Origin: a virus
Taxonomy: Duplodnaviria; Heunggongvirae; Uroviricota; Caudoviricetes
DNA: 46,969 bases
Direction: 5' to 3' (one strand)
Virus record (IMG/VR): IMGVR_UViG_3300045988_152627
The number at the start of each line of letters is the position of its first letter. Within the stretch, counting starts at the first letter, position 1. The position numbers were made by a program, and so were the translations under genes. The notes below the pieces were generated by a model. That model was not told the DNA's origin, ran no database searches, and worked only from the letters and a program-made list of their open reading frames with translations. This document shows, piece by piece, positions 1-40,229 of the stretch.

Positions 1-119
1 AGTATTTCGAATCCAGGCAAGGATTGAGTCATTTTCAAAAGTAAGCCCACCGGACAAGGTATCGCCATTTTTTTGCACGGCGTTACCAGCCCTGTTTACC
101 GTTTCCTGCAAACCGAGGT
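1..119. repeat. Left arm of a perfect 119-bp inverted repeat (reverse complement of 46851..46969)
   Basis: Direct comparison of the first 119 bases with the reverse complement of the last 119 bases: identical, then diverging at 120. Confidence 0.9.
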
Positions 120-1476
120 ATTCGATAACGGCGGCAACGGTCGATTTCGCAAGAATATCCCGCCCGACTTTTGTCAGAGTTGCCAGGCTGGCGACATCAT
201 TCCCCGTAAAATACGGAAACCTGTCTGCCGCAGTAGCAAGCCCGGCCAGCGCCGTCAGGGTGGCATCTTTCGGTTGCTTACCCGCAAGCGCGTTAGTCAT
301 GGTGGTCGCAAAATTCGGGTCGTTGCCCAACGCCGCAGCCAGCTCGTTCAGCGTATTCAGTGCGTCAGGCGACGAGTCCACGAGGGCAGCGATCGCAGCC
401 ATAACGAAAGCCGTGCTTGCGATCTGAGTATTGTTAGTACCTTTTGGCGCAGTTGGTGTTGTTGGTGTTCCGGTCAGCGCCGGACTGTTCAGGGGCGCTT
501 TCTTGTTCGTTTCATCCATTACCACCTTTACAGCTTTCGATGTCGCGGCCAGTGTTTCAGACGTGCTGTTGGTGGCACTACTGAGCTGAGTTATTCCCCT
601 TACAGTCAGTGAAGCTACAGGCACATTTGTTATCTGCTCCCACGAATGCGTGTGATTGGACGGAGCCTTTCCGGCCGCAAGATCATACGCTGCCTTAACA
701 GCCTTTGGTGTTGCTGCTAGCGTTTCAGACGTGCTGTTGGTGGCACTACTGAGCTGAACAATCCCTTTTCGCGCTGTAGTAGCGTCCTGTGCGGTGTATT
801 TGCCATTAGCCAGGTCATATGCTGCCTTAACAGCCTTAGGCGTCGCAGCAAGCGTTTCAGACGTGCTATTGGTGGCGCTGCTAAGTTGAACAAAGCCTTT
901 TGAGGTTAAAGTTGCATCGGGATGATTACGTGATTGCTCATGTTTCACAATGGCTTGCTTAAGCCGCTTTGCTGAAACAGCAAGGGAATCATCTGTACCT
1001 GCATCAATTTCTTGTTCATTGGCAAATCTTGCTACCCCAACAACAGTTTCGGTTGCGGGAGGATTAATAAACTCAATATCACCAAATGTAATATTTTTAG
1101 TATCAAGAGTCTTGATTGCTATGTCACTTGATATTAAAGCAATAGTAGATGATGCTTTATTTATTATTGCTTGTTCTTGCGAGTATACAGCAAACAACGT
1201 TCCCTTATTTGTATACAATCCTATTGTATGGACAACATACTCATCTTTACTATCATCCTTCGCCGTTACATGAATTGTATCAGGGGAAACAACTTTGCCA
1301 CCTATTGTGGTAAGTCGTTTTATTTCGTCTGTTATATTTGTTTGTGAGGTTGACGTGACATAATATCTACTACCTAAACCAACAGAAACAATCTCAACTT
1401 TATTTGTTCCTGTTTTGTTGGCATTAACCAACTCCTGACGCCCGGCGTCAGTCATCGTAAATAATAATTTACTCAC
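1..1476 (-). CDS. Tail fibre protein, N-terminal constant part; 3' end runs off the window start (partial)
   Basis: Open minus-strand frame from GTG 1476 (RBS AAGGAA) or ATG 1455 to the window edge; three QLSSATNSTSETLAATPKAVK repeats, TPTTPTAPKGTNNTQIASTAFV and KQPKDATLTALAGL motifs typical of P2 H / Stf-type fibres. Confidence 0.85.
   Translation of the reverse strand, partial: MSKLLFTMTDAGRQELVNANKTGTNKVEIVSVGLGSRYYVTSTSQTNITDEIKRLTTIGGKVVSPDTIHVTAKDDSKDEYVVHTIGLYTNKGTLFAVYSQEQAIINKASSTIALISSDIAIKTLDTKNITFGDIEFINPPATETVVGVARFANEQEIDAGTDDSLAVSAKRLKQAIVKHEQSRNHPDATLTSKGFVQLSSATNSTSETLAATPKAVKAAYDLANGKYTAQDATTARKGIVQLSSATNSTSETLAATPKAVKAAYDLAAGKAPSNHTHSWEQITNVPVASLTVRGITQLSSATNSTSETLAATSKAVKVVMDETNKKAPLNSPALTGTPTTPTAPKGTNNTQIASTAFVMAAIAALVDSSPDALNTLNELAAALGNDPNFATTMTNALAGKQPKDATLTALAGLATAADRFPYFTGNDVASLATLTKVGRDILAKSTVAAVIEYLGLQETVNRAGNAVQKNGDTLSGGLTFENDSILAWIRNT
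103..128. other. gix/cix-like invertase crossover site, left copy
   Basis: TTCCTGCAAACC-GA-GGTATTCGATAA: two inverted 12-bp half-sites around a 2-bp core, resembling Gin/Cin/Hin sites; the homology boundary with the right copy falls just past the core. Confidence 0.6.
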
Positions 1477-1506
1477 GCTTAATTCCTTGAATTAACAAAT
1501 TGCGAA

Positions 1507-2088
1507 TTAGCACTCGCCAATTAATCGTACATAGGACACAGGCTGACAAGCACCAACAATACCAACACCACCAGAAACATTGGCAGCTTGCGAAAATGTA
1601 AATAATGTTCTTGCCGACTTTGCGCTCTTGATACTTCTTAACGTATCTTCCAACATCTCTTTCGAAGGAACGGCACCATCAAAAGAGTTAATCGAAGCAA
1701 CAATTGAGGCTGTATATGGTTCGCCAGGTGGTGATGTTTCAAACCATTCTGTTATATTTACCTCTCCACCCAAGCTATTTACTACATCTTCAACCGCTGC
1801 CCTTGTACCCTTTATTCGCTTTGTTCGTATTATTGATTTAAAAACAGAACGCTTTAACGATACAGGCCAACTATCCCTCCATGTATCAGCATTCCATTGC
1901 CAAGCTAAATGATCGAGAACAACTGAGTCCAGGTTATCAACAACACTATATATTTCTGTCTTATATATTAAATTGTTAATTGCTTGTAGTTCATCATCGA
2001 TAGCTTTCGACATAGCTATCACGTTGGGATCTCTAGCTAAGTTAGGAGGTAAAACATCCAACAAGCTAACATTAAAGATATCAGCCAT
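1507..2088 (-). CDS. Baseplate/tail protein, P2 gpI-like (Mu gp48-like)
   Basis: 193 aa, immediately upstream of the tail fibre and downstream of the J-like gene, the conserved P2/Mu order. Confidence 0.55.
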   Translation of the reverse strand: MADIFNVSLLDVLPPNLARDPNVIAMSKAIDDELQAINNLIYKTEIYSVVDNLDSVVLDHLAWQWNADTWRDSWPVSLKRSVFKSIIRTKRIKGTRAAVEDVVNSLGGEVNITEWFETSPPGEPYTASIVASINSFDGAVPSKEMLEDTLRSIKSAKSARTLFTFSQAANVSGGVGIVGACQPVSYVRLIGEC

Positions 2089-3205
2089 CCTCTAACCCCG
2101 CATACTGGCAATTTATATTTCTCTCTCTGGCGACCTGCGTCTCTCCAACCACAGTAAATACAGGACTTGATATTTCTAATCTTTTAGCCCCAGCATTTTT
2201 TAAACGTTGAATAATTTCATCTGGATTTATATCTCTTCCCATAACCGAACGTTGCCATTGTTTATACTCATCAATAGCTTTCTCAACCTCACTTTGAATT
2301 AAAGTTGTTCTGTTTTTGTCCGATGAGTTAATCCAGTATTTAATTATTATATCGTATTCAATGCTCTCTGGTTTCTTAACAAGAACTTTATCTGTGAATG
2401 GTCGAATATTAGTTGCAGAGAGAACGCTATTTATCTGCTCTAATAGTTCATCAGAAGGTATATCTCCGTTCTCTAACAAAGAACGGATTTCTACAGTTCC
2501 GGGCGATGGTGTATATACATTCACATCTTTTATATTCTGATTGGCTGTTCTTGTCCAATATTTATAAGAATCCTCCGGCCCTGCTGTAGACAGTTTTTCC
2601 GGCGACAGTTTTATTCTTTCAGCATAATTATCATCTGACTCTGTATCAGCACCAGAATTAGATGTTGTTAGATTCCTTACGCTGGAAACATACGGCAACG
2701 GAGTCACCAACTCGTTTATTTGCCCAGGTAAAAAGCCATTCCCCGATAAGCCAGGTATAACAGCATATCCTGAGACTGTACCAACTGTTTTCCCAGCTGG
2801 TATTTCCAACAAAACATCTGTTTGGAAAATAACACTATTTCCAGTTGAAATTTGAGTGCCAGCAGGTATTGTATATATCCCCGATAATTTTGTTGACAGC
2901 TTAAACTCAAATGTAGTCAAGGCAGATTGAGCTTCCAGCCTAGGCGTATCCGTCAGATAGCCTATATGGTCGAGATATTCACCCCCACCATATGTAAGAA
3001 GGTTTTGTTTTGCAGAAAAATCGATAGCTTTTCTTTGCTGTATAATAATCTCACACAATGACAAGATGAATAATCTACGTGGATCAGCAGGTGCTAATGT
3101 TTCACCTGTTATACTCTCAAAAGCCCTGATTGAACGAGTTGTTATATCAGTCGGGTTAGAATCTGCGAAAGTAATATCTGGCAAACCACCGCGCGGCAAC
3201 GTCAT
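2081..3205 (-). CDS. Baseplate J-like protein
   Basis: 374 aa; size and position between the W-like and I-like genes; start overlaps the upstream gene. Confidence 0.65.
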   Translation of the reverse strand: MTLPRGGLPDITFADSNPTDITTRSIRAFESITGETLAPADPRRLFILSLCEIIIQQRKAIDFSAKQNLLTYGGGEYLDHIGYLTDTPRLEAQSALTTFEFKLSTKLSGIYTIPAGTQISTGNSVIFQTDVLLEIPAGKTVGTVSGYAVIPGLSGNGFLPGQINELVTPLPYVSSVRNLTTSNSGADTESDDNYAERIKLSPEKLSTAGPEDSYKYWTRTANQNIKDVNVYTPSPGTVEIRSLLENGDIPSDELLEQINSVLSATNIRPFTDKVLVKKPESIEYDIIIKYWINSSDKNRTTLIQSEVEKAIDEYKQWQRSVMGRDINPDEIIQRLKNAGAKRLEISSPVFTVVGETQVARERNINCQYAGLEDG

Positions 3206-3522
3206 TCTCTAACTCCTATCACAAGTTTTGGCCTAATAAAACCATCAGAAACGTCCGTTCTTTCAAAAGTAACAGAATGGATAATCGCTCTAGGCTCAAA
3301 CTCACTAATTTTTTGAATTATTTCTCGTGTTGCTGTAGCAATAAAAATTGGGCTGGGGCTATCAACAAGACTTGAATTAACTCCTAATTTTCTGGCATAT
3401 GGTACAGTGCCAATCTGAGTATTAATAATAGTAGAGACATTTTGCAAAACTTCTTCTACAACTGTTTTGGGCGACCAATCAATCGAGTAAGAAGGTGATG
3501 ATATGGTAAACGTATTATTCAT
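3202..3522 (-). CDS. Baseplate protein gpW/gp25-like
   Basis: 106 aa, translationally coupled to the J-like gene; conserved position. Confidence 0.55.
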   Translation of the reverse strand: MNNTFTISSPSYSIDWSPKTVVEEVLQNVSTIINTQIGTVPYARKLGVNSSLVDSPSPIFIATATREIIQKISEFEPRAIIHSVTFERTDVSDGFIRPKLVIGVRE

Positions 3523-3986
3523 AATAATTTACCTAACGCACTTCTAGTTTTTGACTCTATATTGCCAGCAATATCAACTAATGCTTCTTTCAGAGAGGTC
3601 TGCCCGACTTCCTGTAATTTAATGCCGACGATAATCACTCGTGGATTTCCAGTTGGACCGAAATAAGTCCATGACTCCTCTATATCTGTAATTATAAAAT
3701 TACCAAAATACTGAATACCAATTACAACAGGATTTACTTCCTGAATTGATTGCATTGTCCTAAGTAATGAAAGCGCAGCCAATGGAACAATGCCAAGTGT
3801 TGTATCCAACCGCATATTAAAACTAACTTCATCCAGATCTGGACCTATATCCTCCAGAACAGGTTTAAGCCCAATAACATCATGGCGCGCTACACGACGC
3901 TTTGACGTCCTTTTAAAATTGTTGAACGTATTCACCACTATTGATGAGGCAACAAAAGGCATTGTACCAAGCATACCCACAATCAT
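3519..3986 (-). CDS. Tail protein, possibly gpU-like
   Basis: 155 aa between the spike and W-like genes; weak resemblance to the P2 U family. Confidence 0.4.
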   Translation of the reverse strand: MIVGMLGTMPFVASSIVVNTFNNFKRTSKRRVARHDVIGLKPVLEDIGPDLDEVSFNMRLDTTLGIVPLAALSLLRTMQSIQEVNPVVIGIQYFGNFIITDIEESWTYFGPTGNPRVIIVGIKLQEVGQTSLKEALVDIAGNIESKTRSALGKLL

Positions 3987-4603
3987 GCCTGAGCCTCCGT
4001 TGTCGGAGCGTATTCCCCCTGAGCTGTGTGATGGTGGCCTTTAGATTTAATCCCATCAACATCTATATCACCACCAACAACCTTAACATCCCCAGAAATT
4101 GTAGCTGCAACACCTCCAGCAGAAGATCCTTTCATTCCACCTTTGAAGGTTAGTAATCCTTCAACTGTAGCATTTCCGGTAATGATGGTTTCTGGAGCAT
4201 CAATAGTTACGGTTCCTGTAGCCTTAACGGTTACATCTCCGACAGCATCAACAAGGAGTAAATTAGATTCTCTGTCTACCTCAATACGAGTTCCGTTATT
4301 AAATCTAATGACGCGTTTATTAACCGTATTAGATGGCGGCTTCTGTGTTTCATCATAAAAACTACCAAGAATAAAACCTTGTTGCGGCCCTGCGGGATGA
4401 AAGATACACAAAACTTGCTCACCAATATCTGGCATCCAGTAATCAGCATTCTTATCCGTATTTTTCACAATAACTGATAACTTTGCCGAAGTGACGTTAT
4501 CCTGATCATCGAAAGTAACTCTTGCTGTAACATCACCATCATCAATATCAGAAACAACGCCAACTCTTATAGTCTGACGTAATAATGTTTCTAAATCATT
4601 CAT
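3983..4603 (-). CDS. Baseplate spike protein, gpV-like
   Basis: 206 aa; OB-fold-like N-terminus and Gly-rich C-terminus ending in GHHHTAQGEY; conserved position. Confidence 0.6.
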   Translation of the reverse strand: MNDLETLLRQTIRVGVVSDIDDGDVTARVTFDDQDNVTSAKLSVIVKNTDKNADYWMPDIGEQVLCIFHPAGPQQGFILGSFYDETQKPPSNTVNKRVIRFNNGTRIEVDRESNLLLVDAVGDVTVKATGTVTIDAPETIITGNATVEGLLTFKGGMKGSSAGGVAATISGDVKVVGGDIDVDGIKSKGHHHTAQGEYAPTTEAQA

Positions 4604-4605
4604 AA

Positions 4606-5607
4606 TTAATACCCATTAATTACTCTTCGGACATCAATCGAGGTGGTATAACCACTAGCCCCAATTGAATGCACAGCTTTCGATATAAGATATTTTCCAG
4701 AAAATGAACCGAATCCGTCCAGATTTATAGTTACACCAGCTACCAATCTGGTGTCTCCAACCAATACTAAAGCCCCTGTATTTTGATATCTATTTTTAAG
4801 CCGCAAAGCAGCCTTTGCCTTACGTTTTGCTTCATCTAAATTAGCTACCAGTTTTCTTATCTTAAGATTCGACCCTTCTTCTACGGATGGATCTACCCAA
4901 GTATACGAAAGCGACTTTCTTTTTTTAGGTACGCGATATTTGCACGTGCAACTTTTATACAAATCTGTAGATTGTGTGCTAAAGCTATATCTGATTATCT
5001 CATCAATACCTAACGTAAGCGTAGCGATAGGATCTTTTTGCTCAAACATCTCTTGAGCAAATATTATTAATTGGCTATCAGTGACCTTTAACGACAACCC
5101 TTCATCCTGGCAAAGTCGATGGAGAAATTTTAAATCGCTTTCCTCCATTTGATCTTCACGCGCATAATATGGATTACTATCACCATCAATAAGAAACAAC
5201 AGTTCAAGGTTAGCTAATTTAGCTATAGAAGTTGCTATATCTTTAAGAGTTGTTTTTTCCCATGCATTACTTTTTAAATCACGTCTAATGCCTGATGAAA
5301 CAGGAACAGAAACAGCAGTTACCTCAACAACAGAAGGTGGTCCAGAGCAAGTTATGCCATCTACCTGGAATTTCCCGCACTCAAGGACGATTTGATTTAT
5401 AGGCTTAAAGCTCAAATCAATAAAATCACCCTTTTTAGGTGTCCAGTCTCCAGACCATTTCCCATCATCATTTTTTAATATAATAGAAATATCATCGACC
5501 TGACCATCTTCATTATCTGTATAAGACATTGACAAAACATCAGGTGACATATGAGCGGTAATATTTACATTCTGATATATAACATCAAAAAGCGTTTTAC
5601 GTAACAC
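4606..5607 (-). CDS. Tail protein gpD-like (late control D family)
   Basis: 333 aa, immediately downstream of the X-like and tape measure genes. Confidence 0.55.
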   Translation of the reverse strand: MLRKTLFDVIYQNVNITAHMSPDVLSMSYTDNEDGQVDDISIILKNDDGKWSGDWTPKKGDFIDLSFKPINQIVLECGKFQVDGITCSGPPSVVEVTAVSVPVSSGIRRDLKSNAWEKTTLKDIATSIAKLANLELLFLIDGDSNPYYAREDQMEESDLKFLHRLCQDEGLSLKVTDSQLIIFAQEMFEQKDPIATLTLGIDEIIRYSFSTQSTDLYKSCTCKYRVPKKRKSLSYTWVDPSVEEGSNLKIRKLVANLDEAKRKAKAALRLKNRYQNTGALVLVGDTRLVAGVTINLDGFGSFSGKYLISKAVHSIGASGYTTSIDVRRVINGY

Positions 5608-5815
5608 TGTTGCGTCTCCACGGAGGCAAATTGTTTACTGATATTGGCATAACCGGAGCATCAGGAACTTTAAGAATAATTCCCGCAGAAAAAAGCACCG
5701 TAAAGCGGTGCTCAGTATTAGCATCAATAAGAAGATAAGACAGGTACTCATTACCATACAACTTTAACGCGATACTATCCCATGAGTCCCCTTGAACCGT
5801 TCTATAATCATCCAA
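5597..5815 (-). CDS. Tail protein X-like (LysM-like)
   Basis: 72 aa with a LysM-like pattern (YRTVQGDSWDSIALKLYG); sits between tape measure and gpD-like. Confidence 0.55.
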   Translation of the reverse strand: MDDYRTVQGDSWDSIALKLYGNEYLSYLLIDANTEHRFTVLFSAGIILKVPDAPVMPISVNNLPPWRRNSVT

Positions 5816-8600: not shown

Positions 8601-8605
8601 TAGTA

Positions 8606-9036
8606 TTAATCCTCATTAAACACGTCAATCCATGCGACGATTCGCCTCAACCGAAGCGAAAGCCAGTAGGATATAGGTGTTGATTGAGATGATTGAGATA
8701 GAGAACTCGCGGCCCTCATTATTTGCTTATCAATAGATTTTTGCTCATCAAAACCTACGAGAGCAAAAAATTCTGTACCTTTTGACAAACTTTAACAAAG
8801 TCTTTCGCTGGTAATCCATTCAGATACTCTATTGGACGACCAATACAGCGAGCAGCCAAGGCTGCATGGACTTTATTATCAAGTGATGTTTGAACTGAAA
8901 CATGCCCTTGAGATTGCAGTAAGTCCGACACCTCTAAAATATCACTGCCTTTTAGGTTGTCTAAATCAAGGTTGAGTTCAGTCACCGGCTCAAAGTCTTC
9001 AAAACGATATTCTTTACTTAATTTAACGGTTTCCAT
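8606..9036 (-). CDS. Tail assembly chaperone E+E' (-1 frameshift product)
   Basis: Slippery T_TTT_TTG on the minus strand (plus 8764..8770); the -1 frame continues exactly into the 60-aa ORF 8606..8788 (FFALVGFDEQ...). Confidence 0.6.
8755..9036 (-). CDS. Tail assembly chaperone, gpE-like (0-frame product)
   Basis: 93 aa between tube and tape measure; ends in AAT TTT TTG carrying a slippery heptamer. Confidence 0.7.
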   Translation of the reverse strand: METVKLSKEYRFEDFEPVTELNLDLDNLKGSDILEVSDLLQSQGHVSVQTSLDNKVHAALAARCIGRPIEYLNGLPAKDFVKVCQKVQNFLLS

Positions 9037-9045
9037 TTTGTCACC

Positions 9046-9567
9046 TTATAAACCTAAATCATCACGAACGCTTTTTAATATATCTTCACCATCAAAGATA
9101 CAAATAAAGTTCAACTTATCAATTTCCAGGACTTCTTTTCCATCAATAAATAATTTGATATAGAGAACTTCAAATTCATTCTCTGAATCAGTAGCCTTTG
9201 CCACCTGTAGCGAACCTAAATCCAGTTTTTTAGGGTTTAGCTTCATTGAAGCCCGAATAGGAACCGTTTTATATTTTCCTGTTCCTGCATCATAAACCTG
9301 CTGGCTACCGCGAAAATCTACCTGATGCGATGAGGATAGAAATAATTTTGTACCAGCAGAGGTCAGAGTTCGCCATTTAAGAGAGACAGTCATTGGTTTG
9401 AAATGCCCCAGCGTTCCGCTCTCAAGCTCTCCAGCGATACCTGCACCACTAACAGTTTCTGTCATCATCTCAATTGATGGCAGCTTTGCGTCAGCAACAC
9501 CGATAATACGGTTTCCCTCACCGTATACTGTAAAGTTAATAAGTCTCTCAGGAATTTGATTGCTCAA
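9046..9567 (-). CDS. Tail tube protein (FII-like)
   Basis: 173 aa immediately downstream of the sheath gene. Confidence 0.7.
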   Translation of the reverse strand: MSNQIPERLINFTVYGEGNRIIGVADAKLPSIEMMTETVSGAGIAGELESGTLGHFKPMTVSLKWRTLTSAGTKLFLSSSHQVDFRGSQQVYDAGTGKYKTVPIRASMKLNPKKLDLGSLQVAKATDSENEFEVLYIKLFIDGKEVLEIDKLNFICIFDGEDILKSVRDDLGL

Positions 9568-9583
9568 AGCAACCTCCTATTAT

Positions 9584-11047
9584 TTATTCAGAAAACAAGT
9601 TCAGCAGATAATCAGGATTATACTCCATGACGAACTCAATATCTCTGGCAGGTGAGAATGGTGTCATTTTTACATGGAATTTAACAATCCCGTCCATTAA
9701 TGACGTAATCGTGTTTTCAGACTGATCAAAGGTAACAACACCACCTGCAATATCCTGATTACCTGTGAGGCCGTTAAGCCAAATATTCGCACTTGTAACA
9801 ATCGATTCAATTAATCGACGGTTTGCAGGATTGTCTATTTTTGACCAATGCGAAAGAATTAACGTATTACCCACCCAGTTAAACATACGTCGGCAAACAC
9901 GAAATGCGTCTTTGGGGTCTGTAGATGTTGGATAAATAGCATTACGGTTTCCCCATGATTTCCAACCATCAAAATTAAGGCTTGTTACAATCCCCTGTCC
10001 ATTTAAGTAGTTTGCCTGGCTAATGTTAAGCCATACTTCACTGCCATCTTTACGTACAGCACCGTCCATCTGTAGTTTTATATTTGACGGAGAACGTGAT
10101 GGAATATCACCATACTGACTATCCAGCAAGCATGTTGCGGCCGCTAAATGGGTTGAGTGATGGTAAATATTGTCACCAAGTTTCACCATCGGCCAGCACA
10201 CTGTCTGGTTAGCGGCCATGTGATTATTGTTCTGTTTCCATTCAGGAACAGCCGAGTAATCACTGATAGTAGATTTATCGGTCGGCGCATCCGTTATAGC
10301 TTCTGCTTTGAACAATTCACTAATCAGCGCGGCTTTAGCCGCCATTAGCTGACCAACTTCACTATCAGAACTAAATCCAGGTGCAATCACTTGTCCAGGA
10401 ACTAACTTGAAGCGGGGATACACATCTGACAGTAACTCAAGCCCTGTATTGGCTTTAGTGTTGGAATCCACACCACCGATAATGTCATTTTTAGTTACGG
10501 CACCGGGATCAAGATGCGTATAACTAACCTTAAGAGTAGCGTCTTTTTCGGTAATTTTTCCTCCGCTAATAGCTGTAATGACCGTATAGCCATTATCATC
10601 CAGCGCCAGCACATAATCGGTATCAACCGTTAACCCAGGCGAATCACCATCTGCTTTTTTCACAACAACAGATTTATATAAGACACCATCGTTAGAGAGC
10701 GTACCTTTCCCGCCAGAAAGTTTTACTAACTCATCAGTAACGTCTTTCTTATGCTTTGCTGGATCAAGCACATTGATAAATACAACTGGCGCAACACCAT
10801 ATATTCCAAATGCGACTTTAATTACTTCGCTTAAAGTATATTTCTCGAAGTTTGTGCTATATCCTATTTTAGATACGGCCTCTGCGTATGTATAAGCAAT
10901 GATAGGTTTATTTACCGCTGAGGCTGGATCTTCTAACTGATTAACAGGAGCCGTACCAAATGCGACAATCAACCCAGCACTAACTTGCACTGGAGGAGTT
11001 ATAGATGTAGCCAGTTCAGATATATAAATACCGTGGCGATATCCCAT
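9584..11047 (-). CDS. Contractile tail sheath protein (FI-like)
   Basis: 487 aa, first gene of the sheath-tube-chaperone-tape measure block. Confidence 0.75.
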   Translation of the reverse strand: MGYRHGIYISELATSITPPVQVSAGLIVAFGTAPVNQLEDPASAVNKPIIAYTYAEAVSKIGYSTNFEKYTLSEVIKVAFGIYGVAPVVFINVLDPAKHKKDVTDELVKLSGGKGTLSNDGVLYKSVVVKKADGDSPGLTVDTDYVLALDDNGYTVITAISGGKITEKDATLKVSYTHLDPGAVTKNDIIGGVDSNTKANTGLELLSDVYPRFKLVPGQVIAPGFSSDSEVGQLMAAKAALISELFKAEAITDAPTDKSTISDYSAVPEWKQNNNHMAANQTVCWPMVKLGDNIYHHSTHLAAATCLLDSQYGDIPSRSPSNIKLQMDGAVRKDGSEVWLNISQANYLNGQGIVTSLNFDGWKSWGNRNAIYPTSTDPKDAFRVCRRMFNWVGNTLILSHWSKIDNPANRRLIESIVTSANIWLNGLTGNQDIAGGVVTFDQSENTITSLMDGIVKFHVKMTPFSPARDIEFVMEYNPDYLLNLFSE

Positions 11048-11337
11048 TATTTAATCTCCATGATAGAAGAAGAAACTCTAGAGTACATTACATACTCGAC
11101 ACTGGTTTTATCAGAAAGTCTTTTCTCTGCATCTGCAAAATCACTGGTTGCCACAAACAAACACTTTGCACCAGGAATATGTGATATTAATTTTTTACAC
11201 TCTGGAGATAAGCCATTCTTAAATAGTTTATGCTTCAAAATTGAGAGTTGAGGGATTGTTGGTCCTATATATACAAATGTTTGAGCAACATCTTCCTTCT
11301 TTTCTATATCTTCTTTACTACTTTTCTTATTAGCCAT
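11047..11337 (-). CDS. Hypothetical virion-associated protein
   Basis: 96 aa ORF coupled into the structural operon between head and tail modules. Confidence 0.35.
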   Translation of the reverse strand: MANKKSSKEDIEKKEDVAQTFVYIGPTIPQLSILKHKLFKNGLSPECKKLISHIPGAKCLFVATSDFADAEKRLSDKTSVEYVMYSRVSSSIMEIK

Positions 11338-11823
11338 TTAGATAAACTCCTGAGACTGAATATTCTGAGGCTTTAATACTAGCCACGTTCCAGTTGCTTC
11401 CGTTATCCAATATGGATACGGTTGATCATCAAACATTCGCCATCTGATATCGCCCTGAAAGAGAAATTTCTCTTCAAGTAAAGGCTTCTCCTGAAAATGA
11501 AACATCATCCTTTCAAGAAGAGCCATTACCCATTCATATCCAGTATGGTCCTCACAAAAACCACCTAGAAGAAACTTAACCTTAACTTCATCCGTTTCAG
11601 GCTGCATTCCTCCTTCCGTGGGCCTGATAATCACATGAGGAAATTCTGGCGGTTTATCTGGAGATGGTTGTGATTTAGGAGGCAAGTACCCTTTAAATAT
11701 TGTTGGAACAAACAATTTAATATCGCTGTCTGTTTCATCATAAGGAGGCCCCTGCACTAATAAATCATGGAAAACCTCATGTTCCAACCGATTTTTTATT
11801 GCATCTATCAAAAGATTAATCAA
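11338..11823 (-). CDS. Hypothetical protein, possibly tail completion / head-tail joining
   Basis: 161 aa ORF in the head-tail junction block; no recognisable motif. Confidence 0.4.
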   Translation of the reverse strand: MINLLIDAIKNRLEHEVFHDLLVQGPPYDETDSDIKLFVPTIFKGYLPPKSQPSPDKPPEFPHVIIRPTEGGMQPETDEVKVKFLLGGFCEDHTGYEWVMALLERMMFHFQEKPLLEEKFLFQGDIRWRMFDDQPYPYWITEATGTWLVLKPQNIQSQEFI

Positions 11824-12164
11824 ATCGGCATTCCTCTGTTAGTATTAACAGTGAGAGTTATTTCCAATACACCAACATTATCTGATACTTCATCAACAAT
11901 ATAATTTTTACCGTTGATTTTCATTGACTGGTCTTTGACAGGGAGAACAGGAAAATCTTTTCTTGAAACAAATAATATTATTTGCCCCTGATTTATTCCC
12001 TCTGCAAACTCAGCATATGAGCGTTTATTCCGCTCATGAATAAGGTCTGTATCAATAACGGCAAGGATATCCTTGCCGTCTATGTTATATGTATCGGCAA
12101 ACTCTTTTTCATTGAGGAATATTGCAGAAATATCTTGCGCTATAACCTCTTTGAAGGAGTTCAT
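11820..12164 (-). CDS. Hypothetical protein, possibly head completion / adaptor
   Basis: 114 aa, overlapping starts and stops with neighbours. Confidence 0.4.
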   Translation of the reverse strand: MNSFKEVIAQDISAIFLNEKEFADTYNIDGKDILAVIDTDLIHERNKRSYAEFAEGINQGQIILFVSRKDFPVLPVKDQSMKINGKNYIVDEVSDNVGVLEITLTVNTNRGMPI

Positions 12165-12556
12165 TACTTCTTATTACCTTTTTTTTGCGTTGATTTTTTC
12201 GCATTACTGGTATCAGAAGTAGCTACAGATTCAGATGAATCATCAGCAACCGTTTCCTCATTGCCGCCATCATCCTCAAACTCAACCTCGAATACACAGC
12301 TACCCGCCTCCGTTCGCGTAATCAACCCCGCGTCCACAGCATCATTAACAGCAGATGCGTATCCATGCTCAAAAGCTAACTTAGCAGCATCATAGCCCCC
12401 GGCCGATGCCAAATCACCATCCTCTTCGGTGGCAATAGCATGTCCTGACGCAATCAGTTCGGCAATTCTGGAGTTATCCATTAGCCCATTAAGCAAACGG
12501 CCCGCTTTTAGCGAGCCGTGGCTTATCGTATCAATGTTTTTAATCAGTCTGGCCAT
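12164..12556 (-). CDS. Hypothetical protein, possibly head completion (acidic C-terminus)
   Basis: 130 aa directly downstream of the major capsid gene. Confidence 0.4.
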   Translation of the reverse strand: MARLIKNIDTISHGSLKAGRLLNGLMDNSRIAELIASGHAIATEEDGDLASAGGYDAAKLAFEHGYASAVNDAVDAGLITRTEAGSCVFEVEFEDDGGNEETVADDSSESVATSDTSNAKKSTQKKGNKK

Positions 12557-13600
12557 TTAAACCACCTTAGCCACCAGATAGGCATCAGCCACACCAGGAT
12601 TAGGCAGTGGAGATGACTTCATGGCAACATAACGGCCAGCCGGCTTACGAGTTACCCAGGTGTCTGGAACTCGTGGTGACTCAACAATCGTTAGAGTCTT
12701 TTCGGCGTCATCTACAAGCTCTACAGCACCATACAGCATCGTTCCTCGACCAGGAGAGCCAAAGAGGATCTTATCTTCCGGTACTAATGGTTCTGGTTTT
12801 CCTGTTTTATCATTGCGAATAAGTTCGTCGTAACCATAAAAATCGACACCTTCAAGATTGCCATAATGAGTTACGCCTTCTTCTAACTCCTTAGGCTCAA
12901 TATACCCAAGCTCTTTTCGGCGATTATCAAGATATTTAGTTACTGCTTCATTTTTAACGAAAGCATCAACAACTTTTGCGCCCATTACGGCAACACGAGG
13001 TGTAAAACCTGAAGTTAGTGATACCCGACGTTTCCAGTTGCGAACATTGACCAACGGATCTGATTTTGCTGCACTCCATAAATCATCACCTGTCAGTTCA
13101 AGATATGGTTTATCTCCTTCCTCTTCAGGCCAAAAATAAACTGTGTCATCCACACCTTCACCAACAATATCAACCTGCCCCGTAAACAAGACTTGTGCAC
13201 ACATCCATTCTTCACGGCGGTTAACCATTTCATCAAGCTCAAGCAAATCTTTACCTAATTGCTCGGCGGCTCGTTCTGCTGGCGATTTTGCGTTGTAAAT
13301 ATTCTCACCCGGAAGCCTGTTTAAAAGCAGCTCTGCTGTTGTTACCAAATCAGGTGCAACAAGTGGTGGCTCCAGAGTTCTCGTTACAAAGCCGCGTCGC
13401 TCAACGGTTTTTGAGCCAAAACCTTTACCAACAAACGGAGCCATAGTACGGCCACCGCGAACAAAATCCAGATCAACTTTCTTTGTATTAAAGGTCTGAA
13501 CACCAGGAAAAAAGGTACGAAGAAGAAAACGACGAGCCTTGAAATTCTGAATAACAGGCTCAAGCATTGTACGTCGTTCAAAAATATCAATATTCGGCAT
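12557..13600 (-). CDS. Major capsid protein, lambda gpE-like
   Basis: 347 aa; C-terminal PDTWVTRKPAGRY...SSPLP resembles the lambda E NWVTTGDPAR...SAPLM region; follows the decoration and protease genes. Confidence 0.8.
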   Translation of the reverse strand: MPNIDIFERRTMLEPVIQNFKARRFLLRTFFPGVQTFNTKKVDLDFVRGGRTMAPFVGKGFGSKTVERRGFVTRTLEPPLVAPDLVTTAELLLNRLPGENIYNAKSPAERAAEQLGKDLLELDEMVNRREEWMCAQVLFTGQVDIVGEGVDDTVYFWPEEEGDKPYLELTGDDLWSAAKSDPLVNVRNWKRRVSLTSGFTPRVAVMGAKVVDAFVKNEAVTKYLDNRRKELGYIEPKELEEGVTHYGNLEGVDFYGYDELIRNDKTGKPEPLVPEDKILFGSPGRGTMLYGAVELVDDAEKTLTIVESPRVPDTWVTRKPAGRYVAMKSSPLPNPGVADAYLVAKVV

Positions 13601-13620
13601 AAAAATACGACCTCTTTATA

Positions 13621-14004
13621 TTATGCAGATGGATTTTGTTGTGCGGTGTTAAGGAATATCCCAACCTTCCGGCAAGCCAGATATACATCGGCAATCTTTG
13701 CTGATTCAGGAAGGATAACCGCATGTGCATTGAACATTCCGGTCAGCCATGCTGTTCCAACTTGCGCTGAATCAGTCGCATCAATACTGTGTTGAGCGAT
13801 ACAATACGGTTCTTTTGCCACCCCCTCACCAGAGAGATTTATTGGTGCTACAGTGACAACATTTGTTGTCTGATCAATACTGACAAAAGCAAGCAACTCA
13901 CCTCGATTTACTTTACCGCTGGCAAGTTTAATACTTGTTGTAATTGCTGGCATACCACCAGAAATAATCAGATTATCTGGTTCAAATGAAAAAGACTCTC
14001 GCAT
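13621..14004 (-). CDS. Head decoration protein, lambda gpD-like
   Basis: 127 aa between protease and capsid genes, the lambda C-D-E order. Confidence 0.55.
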   Translation of the reverse strand: MRESFSFEPDNLIISGGMPAITTSIKLASGKVNRGELLAFVSIDQTTNVVTVAPINLSGEGVAKEPYCIAQHSIDATDSAQVGTAWLTGMFNAHAVILPESAKIADVYLACRKVGIFLNTAQQNPSA

Positions 14005-14013
14005 AAACTCACC

Positions 14014-15102
14014 TTAATTTTTATCGCGGTTTTTAAATACTGACCCAATAACATTTTTTACTACTTCAGCTTGTTTATCGCCGTTGTTTTCTGGTTGATT
14101 AACATCAACTGAATCATTCACCTCATTTGCGTCTTCTTGCCGTTGATTAAGAAAGTTTTTGTTACGCGCTCGCTCTGCATTCATAATTTCCAAAGCAAGT
14201 TCAGCCGCAGAAACTCCCGTTTTGAATTTTGCATTCTTAACCAGGTCGTCATGACCTGGAATCACGCTATTCTCGATTGTTTCAATGCGCTCGCGTTCTG
14301 ATTTAACGCCCTCGTCTTTACCAGCATTAAAAACCTGATTGTATAATTCTGGATGTTTATTTTTTAATTCATCAAGAGTCACAACATCGTCCTCGGTTTG
14401 TTCATTTAATTCAGTAGATAATTCATTTTTATTTTGTGGCAACTTTGCGAGCGAATCAGGTAATTTTGAAAACCTTGATGCTTCAAAAGTTATTCCATTG
14501 AGCGAAAGCATCCCTTCCTTTATAGAAGCGGATAAACGCATTGGTTTTTCAACTTCGTCAGCAAACCCAAGCTCAACAGCTTCTTCTGCATTTAGCCAAG
14601 TTTCCTGATCCATTAGTTCAATTAACTTATCTTCAGAAAGTCCTGTCTTCTCCTTATATGCAGATAAAATACTATTTCGTATCTTATCCATCATCTCAGC
14701 AATATCACGCAATTCATCCGCATCCCCCATTGCCCATGTCCACGGATTATGGATCATCATCATAGCATTAGATGGGATAACAACTTTATCACCTGCCATT
14801 GCAATAATGGTTGCAGCCGATGCAGCAATACCATCAATATAAACTGTAATATTAGCCTTATGACGTTTTAATGAAGAAAGAATAGCTTGAGCTGTAAAAA
14901 CAGAACCACCATAACTATTAATTTTTACGTTGATAGCATTTGATGAAATATCCTTTAATTTATTAACTATGTCAGAAGAAGAAACCTCATCAAATTCACC
15001 AATATACCCGTATATTAAAAGCTCAGCCGGAGTGTCATCTTCACCCGTGCTATTTTTTATTTCCCACCAATTAGGCATCATCAGTCTCCATATTTTGTTC
15101 AT
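14014..15102 (-). CDS. Head maturation protease / scaffold, S49 (ClpP/SppA-like), lambda gpC-like
   Basis: 362 aa with INSYGGSVFTAQAI...GIAASAATIIAMAGDKVV...MMIHNPWT, characteristic of S49 peptidases. Confidence 0.8.
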   Translation of the reverse strand: MNKIWRLMMPNWWEIKNSTGEDDTPAELLIYGYIGEFDEVSSSDIVNKLKDISSNAINVKINSYGGSVFTAQAILSSLKRHKANITVYIDGIAASAATIIAMAGDKVVIPSNAMMMIHNPWTWAMGDADELRDIAEMMDKIRNSILSAYKEKTGLSEDKLIELMDQETWLNAEEAVELGFADEVEKPMRLSASIKEGMLSLNGITFEASRFSKLPDSLAKLPQNKNELSTELNEQTEDDVVTLDELKNKHPELYNQVFNAGKDEGVKSERERIETIENSVIPGHDDLVKNAKFKTGVSAAELALEIMNAERARNKNFLNQRQEDANEVNDSVDVNQPENNGDKQAEVVKNVIGSVFKNRDKN

Positions 15103-16645
15103 TTACCTCAGAAACAGGAGGATTAATAAGCCCCAACTCACGGCGAGCATTCTCTTCTCTGCCACAAATTTGTGCGGTTTCTTCCCAGTTAAGACCTGAC
15201 ATTTCAGCCGCTTCCTTTTCACGGGTAGAGAATGTTTCCTCAACACGCAGTTTTGCAGCTTTGACTTCTTTAAGGGGATCTAATTGGCCTTGTGATGGGC
15301 CATACCATTGAGCGCCACTCCATGCAGCGCGATATTCAGGCCCATAAAAAAAACCAGGGGCAATAACACGACCTTTAGCAACGGCTTCGGCCAACCATTC
15401 CTCATAGATCGGTTGGCAAAATGACTGAACCATCCAGTCACGTCGCATACGGAACATTTTCCAGGCTTCAAGTAATGCGGCCCTGCTTGCGCTATAACTT
15501 GCTGTAAAATGCTTTACCAAGAGTTCGTAAGGGAGTTCTAAAGCAGCCCCAATTTGACGGCATATGGCGACAACAAAACCATCAAATGCCGTATTTGGTC
15601 GCCCGGGATTTGCTGTATCTATCGACTCACCTTCACCCAAACTTACTATGGAGCCATTCCCCATTTCTTGGGTGTTATCATCATGGTTATCGATCTGCTC
15701 GTACTGAGGGATACCCGATTCACCGACTGGTCCATCAGGTGCGTCTGTTTTAATAAAGACAGTAAACATCCCTGACACAACCGCAGCAACCAATTCAGCA
15801 TCGGTGTATCGTCCTAACTGCTTCAATGCTTCAATTACAGGAGCAAGGACAGGAACGCCACGGCGTTGCCCAGGCCTTTCAAAATCCTGCATGACATGCA
15901 GAATATTTCTTCTTCCTGTTTTACTCCCATATGCGGGAATACGTTCCCACTTGCGGGTTACAAAACCAGAAGTCCCGGCTGGGTGATGTTTTGCAACCCA
16001 GTACGCCACAGGCTCGCTAAATTCACCAACCTCTACGCCACCGTAAAGATTTGGTATAAAACGATCCTCTGGATTGCAAACACGATCACCTTCAATTAAA
16101 TAGACGCACAAATCATATATAACCCCCTTACGCTTAATAACTGGTAGCGCAGCAAATATATCGCCAGATGTTAACGCAGATATTTGGACCAATGATTGCA
16201 ATTGTCCAAAAGTACACATTCTTGATGCATCACAATTTGGAGAATCAGCCCATAATCTAAACTCACGCTCAACATGCTTTTCCCATGCTCGCGCTTCTTC
16301 CTGCGTCATCCCCAAGAAATCGGCATCAATGTTCGCATTTAGTTTTAAACCGGAACCAACAACGTTTGTCCTGATAGTTTTTATTGCGCCAACCGATAGC
16401 GGGTTTCCCATGAAGAGATCACGAGAACGCTCACGCAATTTATCTATATTTTTAACAATATCATCATCAGGAGAACCAGCTTTACTAAACCAACCCCTTA
16501 ATGATTTTTTATGAGTGCTTGCACCATGACGTGAATATCCAAGGTTATTAATACCTTCAAGTGCTTCTAACCGTTTTCTTGCCAAAGCTCGATTTAATGC
16601 CCTCTGAGGTGAAAACGGCGCAATAACTCGATCAAGAATATTCAT
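15071..16645 (-). CDS. Portal protein, lambda gpB-like
   Basis: 524 aa between the gpW-like and protease genes. Confidence 0.8.
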   Translation of the reverse strand: MNILDRVIAPFSPQRALNRALARKRLEALEGINNLGYSRHGASTHKKSLRGWFSKAGSPDDDIVKNIDKLRERSRDLFMGNPLSVGAIKTIRTNVVGSGLKLNANIDADFLGMTQEEARAWEKHVEREFRLWADSPNCDASRMCTFGQLQSLVQISALTSGDIFAALPVIKRKGVIYDLCVYLIEGDRVCNPEDRFIPNLYGGVEVGEFSEPVAYWVAKHHPAGTSGFVTRKWERIPAYGSKTGRRNILHVMQDFERPGQRRGVPVLAPVIEALKQLGRYTDAELVAAVVSGMFTVFIKTDAPDGPVGESGIPQYEQIDNHDDNTQEMGNGSIVSLGEGESIDTANPGRPNTAFDGFVVAICRQIGAALELPYELLVKHFTASYSASRAALLEAWKMFRMRRDWMVQSFCQPIYEEWLAEAVAKGRVIAPGFFYGPEYRAAWSGAQWYGPSQGQLDPLKEVKAAKLRVEETFSTREKEAAEMSGLNWEETAQICGREENARRELGLINPPVSEVNEQNMETDDA

Positions 16646-16881
16646 AAATCTCTTATCACCACTCGTTTAATTCGTGGGCCTCGGCGTATACCTGCTGATA
16701 ATCTTTCTACTTCATTACGCCAGTAATCCATCTCTTTTCTGACTTCTGATAAATCCGCACGAGTTAACTGCCGCGTACCAAATTTATATGACTGACCGCC
16801 AATAGCAATAGCGCGATATGCTTCCCGCCAGACAGATAACATCTCTCTGGCTTCAGTCAGAGAAAATGCTTCATTGTTCAT
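16642..16881 (-). CDS. Head-tail joining protein, gpW-like
   Basis: 79 aa between terminase large subunit and portal, the lambda A-W-B order. Confidence 0.55.
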   Translation of the reverse strand: MNNEAFSLTEAREMLSVWREAYRAIAIGGQSYKFGTRQLTRADLSEVRKEMDYWRNEVERLSAGIRRGPRIKRVVIRDL

Positions 16882-16892
16882 TTATATTTCCT

Positions 16893-18749
16893 CTATATGG
16901 TTACGCCTTTACTTATAACTCTACGGCGTCTTCTACGTATACCTGACGAGTTCTGCACATACACATTACCTCGCATTTCCTGTTCGGCAAGCCAGTTAAA
17001 ATTAGGGTTCAGAATTTCCATCGCGGCAGTTGCATAGTTACGGCAATCAAGAGGCTCGTTACGCTCGTAGACTTTCACCCACTTTTCTTTTGTCTGCCCA
17101 TTTTTATATTCAAATATTTTTTTCTCTGATAATAATCCTTTAAAGTATTCGGTATCATATCCTCTGTCAGAATCTAATGGGAAATGCATATAACCAGGAC
17201 CAGGATCATGTAGTTTAATTCTTGCCATGATGGTCCCTTTACCATCATCAACCCCCAAATTAAACAACATAGCACCCACACGGTTATTATTACTTGGCTT
17301 TCCTATAAATGGTAAACCTACCCCACCACGCCCCCTGATAGAGTATATTCGCCTTGATTCTCTCGGCTTAGTAAAGCGATATACCTCTGTCGTAAAATGC
17401 CCACCAGAGTCAATACAAACGGAAGAAATCTGTAATTTTCGACCGTCACGGAATGACCAGCTACGGAGTAAGTATTCATCAAGTTGTTTCCAGACAACAT
17501 CTTGTGCGGGATCACCTGGGAATATTTTATATTCTATCCCCCATGACTCCTTACCTTTTCCCCAACCGACCAATTCACAAACTAAATACGTGTCCTGTAC
17601 GTCAACACCAGCACTTAACAATAAAACATCATCTGGCAAAAACTCTTCAAACCTTATTCTGCGTTGCAACAAGTATTCAGGATCGATATCGTCTTTAGCA
17701 TCCTCTTTCCATGGCTCACCCAGCTTAAGGTTAATAAACTCCATTAATCCATTTTTATCGCGGTTTCTGGTTGCTTCCGTAAATTCTTCAACCAGCTCTG
17801 ACAATGCAACCCACGGGGAGTAAAGACTGTTAATATGAAAACCAACAATACCTTTAACTCCAGTATGTTCAGCTATCCATACCCCCTTCGCCAACCAATC
17901 AACGTCTGGTTTACCAGATCCGCGCATAATCCCGCCGCACTCACAGCACTCATATCTGGCCGTTTCCGGTAACGCCTCACCTGAATCGCTCTTATCCCAT
18001 CTGACTTGCGACCATTTCATCACCTGCATGGTGCCACAACATGGGCAAGGAACATGGTAGTAACGCTGATCGGAGAGCTTAAACCACTTGTGGATTTTGC
18101 TCGTTTCCTCCAAAACAGGAGTAGAAACAAAAACTTTCTTACGATTATGAAAGTTGGTAGTACGCTGAATACCTAGTTTTAGTGGGTCGCCCTCCTGCGT
18201 CACACCGTAACGATCAATCTCATCAGCTAACAGTATTCGAATTGGCCTGGATGCAAGACCTGCTGGGGAATTAGCACCAACAAGTGCTATATATCCACCA
18301 GCGTAATGCTTCATACGTATAGTCGTGCTGGACTTTTTGGCTGCACCGCGCCCCTCTTTCCCTTCATGCAGCTTGTGTTTCAAACCAGGGGAATATTTGA
18401 ACGTCGGATCAATACGCTCTTTTGAAAAAGCCTCAGCCGCCTCTACCGTTGGATAAATCATCAACTGAGGAGATGGCTCCTGATCTGCAAAGTAACCCAT
18501 AACATTTAGCTGTAATTCGGATTTACCAATTTGCGAGCTACATTGCATCACTACTGTTTCTGTATCAGCGTCACCAATAACATCCATTGGTTCACGCAAA
18601 TATGGCACTCGGCTTGTACGCCACGGCCCTGGCTCTGGAGACGTTCCCGGCGCTACATGACGATACTTATCAGCCCATTCGGAAACAGTTAGCCGTGATT
18701 TAGGGCGAAGCGCACGGAAAAAAGCGGTGCTCCATACTGTTTCGCCCAT
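16893..18749 (-). CDS. Terminase large subunit, lambda gpA-like
   Basis: 618 aa; Cys-rich zinc-ribbon-like CPCCGT...CCECGG segment; size and position. Confidence 0.85.
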   Translation of the reverse strand: MGETVWSTAFFRALRPKSRLTVSEWADKYRHVAPGTSPEPGPWRTSRVPYLREPMDVIGDADTETVVMQCSSQIGKSELQLNVMGYFADQEPSPQLMIYPTVEAAEAFSKERIDPTFKYSPGLKHKLHEGKEGRGAAKKSSTTIRMKHYAGGYIALVGANSPAGLASRPIRILLADEIDRYGVTQEGDPLKLGIQRTTNFHNRKKVFVSTPVLEETSKIHKWFKLSDQRYYHVPCPCCGTMQVMKWSQVRWDKSDSGEALPETARYECCECGGIMRGSGKPDVDWLAKGVWIAEHTGVKGIVGFHINSLYSPWVALSELVEEFTEATRNRDKNGLMEFINLKLGEPWKEDAKDDIDPEYLLQRRIRFEEFLPDDVLLLSAGVDVQDTYLVCELVGWGKGKESWGIEYKIFPGDPAQDVVWKQLDEYLLRSWSFRDGRKLQISSVCIDSGGHFTTEVYRFTKPRESRRIYSIRGRGGVGLPFIGKPSNNNRVGAMLFNLGVDDGKGTIMARIKLHDPGPGYMHFPLDSDRGYDTEYFKGLLSEKKIFEYKNGQTKEKWVKVYERNEPLDCRNYATAAMEILNPNFNWLAEQEMRGNVYVQNSSGIRRRRRRVISKGVTI

Positions 18750-18754
18750 GAGGT

Positions 18755-19315
18755 TTATTCTTCCTGCTTAATAAATCGGGATTCCTGGAGCGCCTGAAGC
18801 GCAAAATTAATCTCGTCTTCAATAATGCGTTCGATCTCCCTGGCTGTTTTGCCTTCACAACGGGGAGCTGCTCTTGGAGCAATACTAAATAAGCGGCTAC
18901 GCAATTCATTAGCTGCCAGAAATGCATCATCCCTGACCGCATCTTTAGCGATGAGAGAGCCTTCCTTTTCTTCAAATTCAAGGCGTTTCAGCTTTGCCTG
19001 ATAAATTTTTTCTGCGGTCTTAGCCTTGTTGAATTGCACCGCAACACCGGAAGTACCACCAGCTAATCCGGCATCATCAGCGGGTAACTCTGGTTGTTCC
19101 GAAGATATCCCATGCCCTCTTTTTCCATTTTCAGCAGATACCTCACGACCAACCTGTCGGCTCGCTTCATAAGCCGCACTAGCTTTATCAAAATCCAGCT
19201 TGCCGCTTTTCAGCACTGGAATGCGACCGGAACGACAGAGCTTCGTAACCATTGCCGGAGAAATACCTTTCCGGCGGGCAAACTCTGACTTACTGACGAT
19301 GGCCATTACTTGCAA
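18755..19315 (-). CDS. Terminase small subunit, Nu1-like
   Basis: 186 aa with an N-terminal winged-HTH-like segment, immediately upstream of the large subunit. Confidence 0.6.
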   Translation of the reverse strand: MQVMAIVSKSEFARRKGISPAMVTKLCRSGRIPVLKSGKLDFDKASAAYEASRQVGREVSAENGKRGHGISSEQPELPADDAGLAGGTSGVAVQFNKAKTAEKIYQAKLKRLEFEEKEGSLIAKDAVRDDAFLAANELRSRLFSIAPRAAPRCEGKTAREIERIIEDEINFALQALQESRFIKQEE

Positions 19316-26083: not shown

Positions 26084-26159
26084 TTGGTGGCCCCTACCGG
26101 ATTTGAACCGATGACCGTGCGATTATGAGTCGCCTGCTCTAACCACTGAGCTAAGGGGC
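26084..26159 (-). tRNA. tRNA with CAU anticodon, most similar to tRNA-Ile2 (ileX-type); elongator Met not excluded
   Basis: 76-nt cloverleaf GGCCCCTTAGCTCAGTGGTTAGAGCAGGCGACTCATAATCGCACGGTCATCGGTTCAAATCCGGTAGGGGCCACCA: 7-bp acceptor stem, D and T arms, CTCATAA anticodon loop, encoded CCA. Confidence 0.85.
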
Positions 26160-29509: not shown

Positions 29510-29511
29510 AG

Positions 29512-40195: not shown

Positions 40196-40200
40196 AACAA

Positions 40201-40219: not shown

Positions 40220-40229
40220 TCTTCAATTC

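Follow-up and report, generated by a model that had tools for sequence, protein, structure and literature searches.

The IMG/VR virus record IMGVR_UViG_3300045988_152627 (Duplodnaviria; Heunggongvirae; Uroviricota; Caudoviricetes) is a DNA sequence of 46,969 nucleotides, and this whole stretch is referred to here as the window. Its positions 1-19315 hold the virion genes of an element that we identify below as a phage-plasmid. They are occupied by one uninterrupted, tightly packed array of minus-strand genes that runs from 19315 down to 1, and the listing of open reading frames (ORFs) and their translations show that all of the virion ORFs are intact. An earlier annotation, made from the sequence of the region without database searches (the sequence-only reading), listed 24 genes and described them as a mosaic of lambda-like head genes and a contractile tail of the P2/Mu type; the ORF listing and family scans recover all 24, in the order and at the coordinates it gave. 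The virion proteins were assigned to families by scans of Pfam, PHROGs and NCBIfam, and by BLASTP against the proteins of lambda, P2 and Mu.

The head genes come first and, compared with the lambda annotation, are in the lambda order, TerS-TerL-adaptor-portal-protease-decoration-capsid. TerS, the terminase small subunit (18755-19315), matches phrog_57 (7e-42) and is 42% identical to the TerS proteins of phages X29 and vB_VpaM_XM1; its likely start is the ATG at 19306, which gives a product of 183 residues that matches the annotation in relatives. The large subunit TerL (16893-18749) is of the lambda gpA family (GpA_ATPase 7e-76 and GpA_nuclease 1e-84; 28% identical to lambda A, 5e-61), and is followed by a 79-residue head-tail adaptor at the gpW position (16642-16881; DUF6148 9e-16, phrog_118 'head-tail adaptor' 1e-28) and a portal of the lambda gpB family (15071-16645; Phage_portal_2 7e-101; lambda B 27%, 6e-44). 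A ClpP-related head maturation protease (14014-15102; CLP_protease 6e-32, NCBIfam Clp_rel_HeadMat 1.5e-65), a head decoration protein (13621-14004; phrog_49 1e-24) and a major capsid protein of the lambda gpE family (12557-13600; Phage_cap_E 1.5e-55; lambda E 25%, 3.5e-19) complete the set. Assignment of the head to the lambda family is thus borne out for TerL, portal and capsid, which fall into the gpA, gpB and gpE families by Pfam and show BLASTP identities of 25-28% to the corresponding lambda proteins A, B and E.

Some of the individual head labels require revision. The protease had been called an S49 enzyme, but it scores 220 bits against NCBIfam Clp_rel_HeadMat, for which the cut-off is 120, and is related to ClpP (S14-like); Peptidase_S49 gives 23.9 bits, below its cut-off of 24.9, and the BLASTP comparison with lambda gpC has an E value of 0.23. 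The C-terminal half of the protease (residues ~200-362) is presumably a scaffold domain. TerS is not Nu1-like: it has no match to Pfam Nu1 and none by BLASTP to lambda Nu1. The protein labelled gpW is a DUF6148 adaptor with no Pfam gpW or BLASTP match, and its hhalign comparison with lambda W (E 0.22) is not significant; it is 45-52% identical to the proteins at the same position in Lily, X29 and vB_VpaM_XM1. The functional labels of TerS and the adaptor depend on PHROGs 57 and 118. Pfam HDPD scores 18.7 bits (E 0.002) on the decoration protein, for a cut-off of 29.1, and BLASTP finds no match between this protein and lambda D.

Four small genes, J1 to J4 (11047..12556), lie between the capsid and sheath genes. 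Their products had been regarded as unrecognisable, which does not hold for J2 and J3, while J1 and J4 are still unassigned. J2 (11820-12164; 114 residues) matches phrog_82 'head closure Hc1' (3.6e-5), and an exhaustive search places it in a family of 739 representatives. Among 136 aligned members of this family, 38 match Phage_attach (best 9.5e-7) and five match the related Gifsy-2 family, and the family profile aligns with lambda FII by hhalign (E 7e-4) over equivalent columns, 58-99 and 58-98. A profile search of the PDB gives a weak match to the Gifsy-2 structure 2pp6 and otherwise nothing useful. By these family relationships J2 appears to be a head-closure (stopper) protein of the lambda gpFII/Hc1 type. 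We note that several public records, including some from E. coli, label the J2 gene 'sugar transporter' or 'ATP-binding sugar transporter'; this is a misnomer that has spread from the name of the Pfam Gifsy-2 family.

J3 (11338-11823; 161 residues) has the predicted fold of a tail terminator (Tc1). An AlphaFold model built with 11 homologues has a predicted local distance difference test score (pLDDT) of 74.6 and a predicted template modelling score (pTM) of 0.73, and there is a weak profile match to the Pvc16 and Algo1 caps. As a terminator, J3 would cap both tube and sheath and dock to the head-closure ring.

J4 (11047-11337; 96 residues), directly upstream of the sheath gene, is conserved: relatives of it occupy the same slot before the sheath gene in X29 (33% identical) and Lily (25%), and a profile search recovers 34 clusters that share an invariant IY[IV]GP-like motif. 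The PDB profile search yields nothing useful, and the family has no known fold. Mu gp38 occupies the same position, but comparison of J4 with it gave nothing. J1 (12164-12556; 130 residues) is in the slot used by FI in lambda, has an acidic middle and a lysine-rich tail, and matches phrog_5541 (unknown function; 2e-78). Only its N-terminal ~45 residues align with the proteins that Lily and HFM1 have in this slot, and it has no Pfam, NCBIfam or PDB match; a relationship to lambda FI was also considered and set aside, as the comparison returns no match. Even at permissive thresholds neither Pfam nor NCBIfam yields anything for J1, J3 or J4. J1 and J4 are lineage-specific accessory proteins, and our best guess is that they act as assembly or neck-associated factors.

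The tail genes begin with a contractile sheath of 487 residues (9584-11047; phrog_23 8e-96; BLASTP to P2 FI 9e-12) and a tube protein of the P2 FII family (9046-9567; Phage_tube 3.5e-44; P2 FII 28%, 7e-13), followed by a chaperone pair of the E/E+E' type (8606-9036; Phage_TAC_7 1.5e-5, phrog_3140 9e-43) and a 930-residue tape measure (5808-8600; PhageMin_Tail 1e-20; BLASTP to P2 T 6e-8). Next are tail protein X (5597-5815; Phage_tail_X 2e-4, phrog_46 2e-17), a gpD-like baseplate hub (4606-5607; Phage_GPD 3e-9, phrog_52 1e-109; P2 D 28%), a gpV-like spike (3983-4603; Phage_base_V 3e-7, Phage_spike 4e-7; P2 V 26%, 2e-16), a gpU-like tail protein (3519-3986; Phage_P2_GpU 2e-22), a gpW/gp25-like wedge or sheath initiator (3202-3522; GPW_gp25 7e-5, phrog_43 4e-20), baseplate J (2081-3205; Baseplate_J 7e-55) and baseplate I (1507-2088; Tail_P2_I 4e-27). 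The array ends with the N-terminal 485 residues of a tail fibre (1-1455; Phage_fiber_2 repeats, 3e-59), the gene for which continues beyond the left edge of the window.

The proposal of a P2-type tail holds throughout, and the FI, FII, E, T, X, D, V, U, W, J and I families are all present by Pfam, PHROGs and BLASTP. For the sheath, tube, tape measure, X, D, V, U, W, J and I proteins the best BLASTP match is to P2, at 26-31% identity, and matches to Mu are weaker. All seven of the baseplate proteins X, D, U, V, W, J and I have Pfam matches, of which those of X and W are under the Pfam cut-offs but strong in PHROGs. The sheath shares 44-54% identity with the proteins annotated as sheaths in X29, HFM1, Lily and Epona. 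It has no Pfam match even at E values up to 10, and the sheath of this lineage is a gap in Pfam coverage.

The predicted chaperone frameshift is also supported by the sequence. A T TTT TTG heptamer at 8770-8764 on the minus strand lies five codons before the stop of the chaperone ORF (8755-9036), and reading in the -1 frame could continue to 8606, which leaves six bases before the tape measure gene begins. A two-part chaperone gene is annotated in X29 as well, and the -1 shift annotated for E+E' in P2 is at the same relative position. With these assignments 22 of the 24 genes now have defensible names, which is mainly a gain in annotation.

The tail has eleven families in common with P2, at 26-31% identity, but the organization differs in that P2 has separate tail operons, whereas here there is a single contiguous Mu-like order of sheath, tube, tape measure, baseplate and fibre. 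None of the P2 head proteins (Q, P, O, N, M and L) has a BLASTP match. Judged by gene content, with no P2 head genes and the tail in one contiguous block, the element is not a member of the Peduoviridae. Lambda, with its head and neck order Nu1-A-W-B-C-D-E-FI-FII-Z-U, differs at TerS, W, FI and the protease, which have no detectable similarity (the lambda protease is S49, the one here ClpP-like), and in possessing Z, which is absent here; furthermore, the tail here is contractile. In the wider lineage, whose members carry a gpZ-like gene (see below), the lambda-type order continues, as E-[slot]-FII-Z-U-like, as far as the terminator, after which J4, sheath and tube replace gpV. It is the terminator that has to serve both worlds, as it must cap the sheath as well as the tube.

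To place this combination among other phages, capsid and sheath were each searched by tblastn against 50,697 phage records, and the nearest relatives are identical for the two proteins. The capsid and sheath are 47% and 54% identical to those of the Vibrio phages X29 and phi 2, 45% and 50% to those of vB_VpaM_XM1 and R19R, 40% and 44% to those of Paenibacillus phage Lily, and 35% and 44% to those of phiERICV, followed by phages of Faecalibacterium and Fusobacterium; the Faecalibacterium relatives have been classified by Virfam as Myoviridae of Type 1, cluster 6 (PMC5883640). Across the other proteins, too, head and tail have diverged in step. Identities to X29 are 63% for TerL, 66% for the portal, 58% for the tube, 42% for D and 45% for J, and the corresponding values for Lily (Lilyvirus) are 41%, 55%, 46%, 37% and 44%. 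Matches by tblastn are found for 21 of the 24 proteins in both Vibrio phages (24-66% identity), 19 in Acinetobacter phage HFM1 and 18 in Lily.

The records of X29, vB_VpaM_XM1, Lily and HFM1 have one common gene order, from TerS to I and the fibre, and the order from TerS to baseplate I is shared likewise by phi 2, PVP-XSN and R19R. X29, vB_VpaM_XM1, HFM1 and Lily have the adaptor, the FII-like protein and the terminator in common with the window, and X29 and Lily also have the J4 family. They differ in carrying a gpZ/Ne1-like gene of their own and in having fibres unlike the one here, and vB_VpaM_XM1 has an integrase in place of the plasmid functions. In the HFM1 record the portal, decoration protein, capsid, sheath, tube, tape measure and J were detected by proteomics. 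We note that vB_VpaM_XM1 (PP580404.1) is not the 'XM1' with a virion structure from cryo-EM (PDB entries 7KH1, 7KJK, 7KLN and 7KMX); the two have tape measures of different length, and no neck protein of vB_VpaM_XM1 is in the PDB.

These relationships bear on whether the head and tail were joined recently, in or near this element, by fusion of a lambda-like siphovirus head to a P2/Mu-like tail with the junction genes as new adaptors. Such an origin would account for lambda-type families on one side and P2-type families on the other, head swapping is real in the wider lineage (see Epona below), and the fibre gene does contain a genuinely recent joint. However, identity to lambda and P2 is only 25-31% on either side of the junction, the same 24-gene order recurs with similar head and tail divergence in phages of Vibrio, Acinetobacter and Paenibacillus, and J2 and J3 belong to universal Type-1 neck families. 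Moreover, G+C content (GC) is uniform over positions 1000-19000 (0.36-0.47) without a step at the junction, which argues against recent joining, and we consider this origin very improbable. The description of the virion module as a mosaic is hence apt at the level of protein families, but not as a join made in this element, given the equal remoteness of its two halves and the collinearity shared with its relatives. Because head and tail have diverged in step in four collinear relatives from three phyla/classes, the lambda-type head and P2-type tail appear to be an anciently co-inherited design, and to constitute an old lineage that extends across Proteobacteria and Firmicutes.

Nor does the head-tail interface, where in the sequence-only reading the compatibility of head and tail must be solved, consist of special adaptors. 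Type-1 necks are built of Hc1 (SPP1 gp16/lambda FII), Tc1 (SPP1 gp17/lambda gpU) and either an Ad1 adaptor or an upstream gpW-like substitute (PMC4362835). The FII-like ring and the terminator are standard members of these families, and the DUF6148 protein, which lies upstream of the portal in the gpW position and is labelled adaptor by PHROG 118, is a candidate for the Ad1/gpW part. Faecalibacterium phage Epona (Eponavirus) is informative in this regard, as it has a homologous neck and tail (J2 41%, J3 24%, sheath 44% and J 40% identical), in which the same-slot genes are annotated Hc1, Ne1 and Tc1, but differs in having an unrelated prohead protease, a 530-residue capsid protein without a match, and a portal that is just 24% identical. 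Epona thus shows that the neck genes segregate with the tail. A lambda head on a P2 tail represents an old and stable lineage, in which an exchange of heads leaves neck and tail together.

A more complex picture is seen between J2 and J3. In all five of X29, vB_VpaM_XM1, Lily, HFM1 and Epona, a gene for a protein of ~185 residues is situated between the FII-like and terminator genes, and lambda gpZ is recovered at 5.5e-13 with a profile built from the five. This position is that of Ne1 (SPP1 gp16.1/lambda gpZ/P2 gpS), which sits between Hc1 and Tc1 and is reported to be nearly universal in Type-1 necks; Ne1 proteins vary from 56 to 231 residues and are extremely divergent (PMC4362835). In the window the FII-like and terminator genes have no such gene between them. 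Exactly four junction genes and no Ne1 are also seen in L012 and L013, two enterobacterial relatives at a greater distance (J3 proteins 67% and 46% identical), and because of this the enterobacterial clade as a whole appears to be without a recognisable Ne1.

It is conceivable, although we regard it as doubtful, that this clade makes infectious contractile-tailed particles without any Ne1/gpZ/gpS protein, or that the job has passed to J1 or J4. The related possibility that J1 or J4 is a diverged or non-homologous stand-in for Ne1, so that the neck is functionally complete, is similarly tentative. A hidden Ne1 would fit the broad size range and extreme divergence reported for these proteins (PMC4362835), and the J1-slot protein is larger in the enterobacterial clade that lacks Z (130-151 residues) than in Lily (49) or HFM1 (54), with a middle that is conserved specifically within that clade. 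Against this, J1 and J4 profiles do not match a six-member Ne1/gpZ profile by hhalign, J4 occurs together with Ne1 in X29 and Lily, and X29 and vB_VpaM_XM1 have J1-slot proteins of 104-120 residues in addition to Ne1. The lack of Ne1 and the fold-less J4 family offer small but testable leads on what a myovirus neck minimally needs.

The missing gene could alternatively signify that the element is defective, either a decaying prophage-plasmid or a tailocin-like remnant that makes no infectious particles, since Ne1 is otherwise near-universal, and particles of lambda Z and P2 S mutants are poorly infectious or unjoined (PMC4362835). This seems most unlikely, however, as the virion ORFs are intact and tightly packed, lysis genes are present in the window (including one for a GH108 endolysin), and the four-gene junction is kept in relatives down to 46% identity, which argues for selection. 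In addition, three genomes that are 99% identical have been deposited as phages with Yersinia pestis EV76-CN as the host.

These three, Yersinia phages vB_YpM_39, vB_YpM_41 and vB_YpM_44 (OR545053-5), are circular records of ~49 kb named as myoviruses; the 99% nucleotide identity covers the whole virion region and nearly all of the window. In the Yersinia phage records 23 of the 24 matched genes are annotated 'hypothetical' and the protease is named clpP. Two E. coli 'prophage' records also match the virion region. Among 5426 complete E. coli genomes the block is present in 72, and 81 of its 82 places are on plasmids of 47-52 kb; one of these is pATCC25922_1 (NZ_CP158444.1) of the reference strain ATCC 25922. 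PLSDB contains 59 further plasmids with the block, from Escherichia spp. and Klebsiella, all of which are non-mobilizable. The three Yersinia phages and pATCC25922_1 have the same genes in the same order as the window, and differ from it in the first ~90 bases of the fibre part and by small differences in accessory regions outside the virion block. The annotation of pATCC25922_1, which is nearly identical, includes no integrase. The element is thus an already known phage-plasmid, and its architecture is already known too. In the literature searched no named phage-plasmid group was found for it; the pSLy3 group was considered and rejected, as pSLy3 lies in the SSU5 supergroup.

Taken together, these observations lead us to interpret region 1-19315 as the complete late operon, encoding the virion, of a temperate myovirus that persists in Escherichia and its relatives in the form of a plasmid of ~49 kb, with a probability of roughly 85%. 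A plausible scenario for assembly, drawn in part from the lambda and SPP1 pathways, is that DNA would be packaged by the gpA-type terminase through the lambda-type portal into a gpE-type capsid, which would be matured by the ClpP-like protease and stabilised by the decoration protein. The filled head would be sealed by the 79-residue adaptor and then by a hexamer of the FII-like J2. Independently of the head, a P2-type baseplate (hub D/V/U/X; wedges W/J/I) would nucleate the tube and sheath around the 930-residue tape measure, aided by the chaperone pair produced by a -1 frameshift at T TTT TTG. J3 would then cap tube and sheath, and present the surface that docks onto J2.

Several points weigh against this interpretation, chiefly with regard to the neck. 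The adaptor is equated with gpW on the basis of its position and its PHROG label. The match of J2 itself to Pfam Phage_attach (E 0.021) is below threshold, and the case for it rests on the J2 family. J3 is placed solely by its predicted fold in a model of moderate confidence, and its hhalign comparisons with lambda gpU and P2 gpR give no sequence signal; the roles of J1 and J4 are guessed. The neck model is also incomplete, in that the gpZ/Ne1 profile, run against all ORFs of at least 40 residues from both the window and the whole genome of vB_YpM_39, has a best E value of 0.57, and neither sequence encodes a gpS/gpZ-type protein. Lastly, myovirus morphology rests on the names given to the phages by their depositors.

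The left end of the array has a different history. Within the fibre gene GC is 0.32-0.36 above about position 900-1050 and climbs to 0.51-0.58 below it. Over bases 1-906 the nucleotide identity to P2-like phages is 90-92%, and residues 169-485 of the fibre match P2 gpH at 74% identity, some stretches reaching 83-91% identity to Mu S and lambda Stf. The sole recent mosaic joint lies inside the fibre gene, at about 900-1050, and it has the character of an ordinary exchange of a host-range cassette. Alignment to vB_YpM_39 shows that the window is a circular replicon opened within an invertible fibre segment. The ends of the window (1-1050 and 46223-46969) lie in or beside this segment, which is under a Hin-like invertase (46223-46777), and Hin-mediated inversion would presumably switch the fibre tips. 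Compared with vB_YpM_39 the window is short of ~3 kb, which in that phage hold the remainder of the fibre, the alternative fibre tip and a pair of genes for tail-fibre assembly.

Among the genes outside the virion block are those for an IncFII-family RepA (45055-46041, minus strand; IncFII_repA 1e-43), ParA (36107-36775, plus strand), a Gp49/HigB-like toxin (43245-43598, minus strand) and a helix-turn-helix antitoxin (42946-43245, minus strand). Segments 28300-30130 and 37580-40900 are variable accessory regions, with 90-93% identity or gaps relative to vB_YpM_39 and pATCC25922_1. A tRNA gene at 26085-26160 (minus strand) has the anticodon CAT and is called tRNA-Met by ARAGORN and in the Yersinia phage record, but tRNA-Ile in the RefSeq annotation of pATCC25922_1. 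Three proteins with ParB_N domains are encoded at 19306-19896, 21189-22568 and 22562-23185; one is directly upstream of TerS, a placement conserved in X29 and vB_VpaM_XM1, and another is fused to a methyltransferase domain. Upstream of the ParB-like and TerS genes there is a 556-bp non-coding gap (19897-20452), a plausible candidate for the cos region. Position 20309/20310 of the window corresponds to the start of the vB_YpM_39 record, and HFM1 has an 11-nucleotide 5' cohesive end just upstream of TerS.

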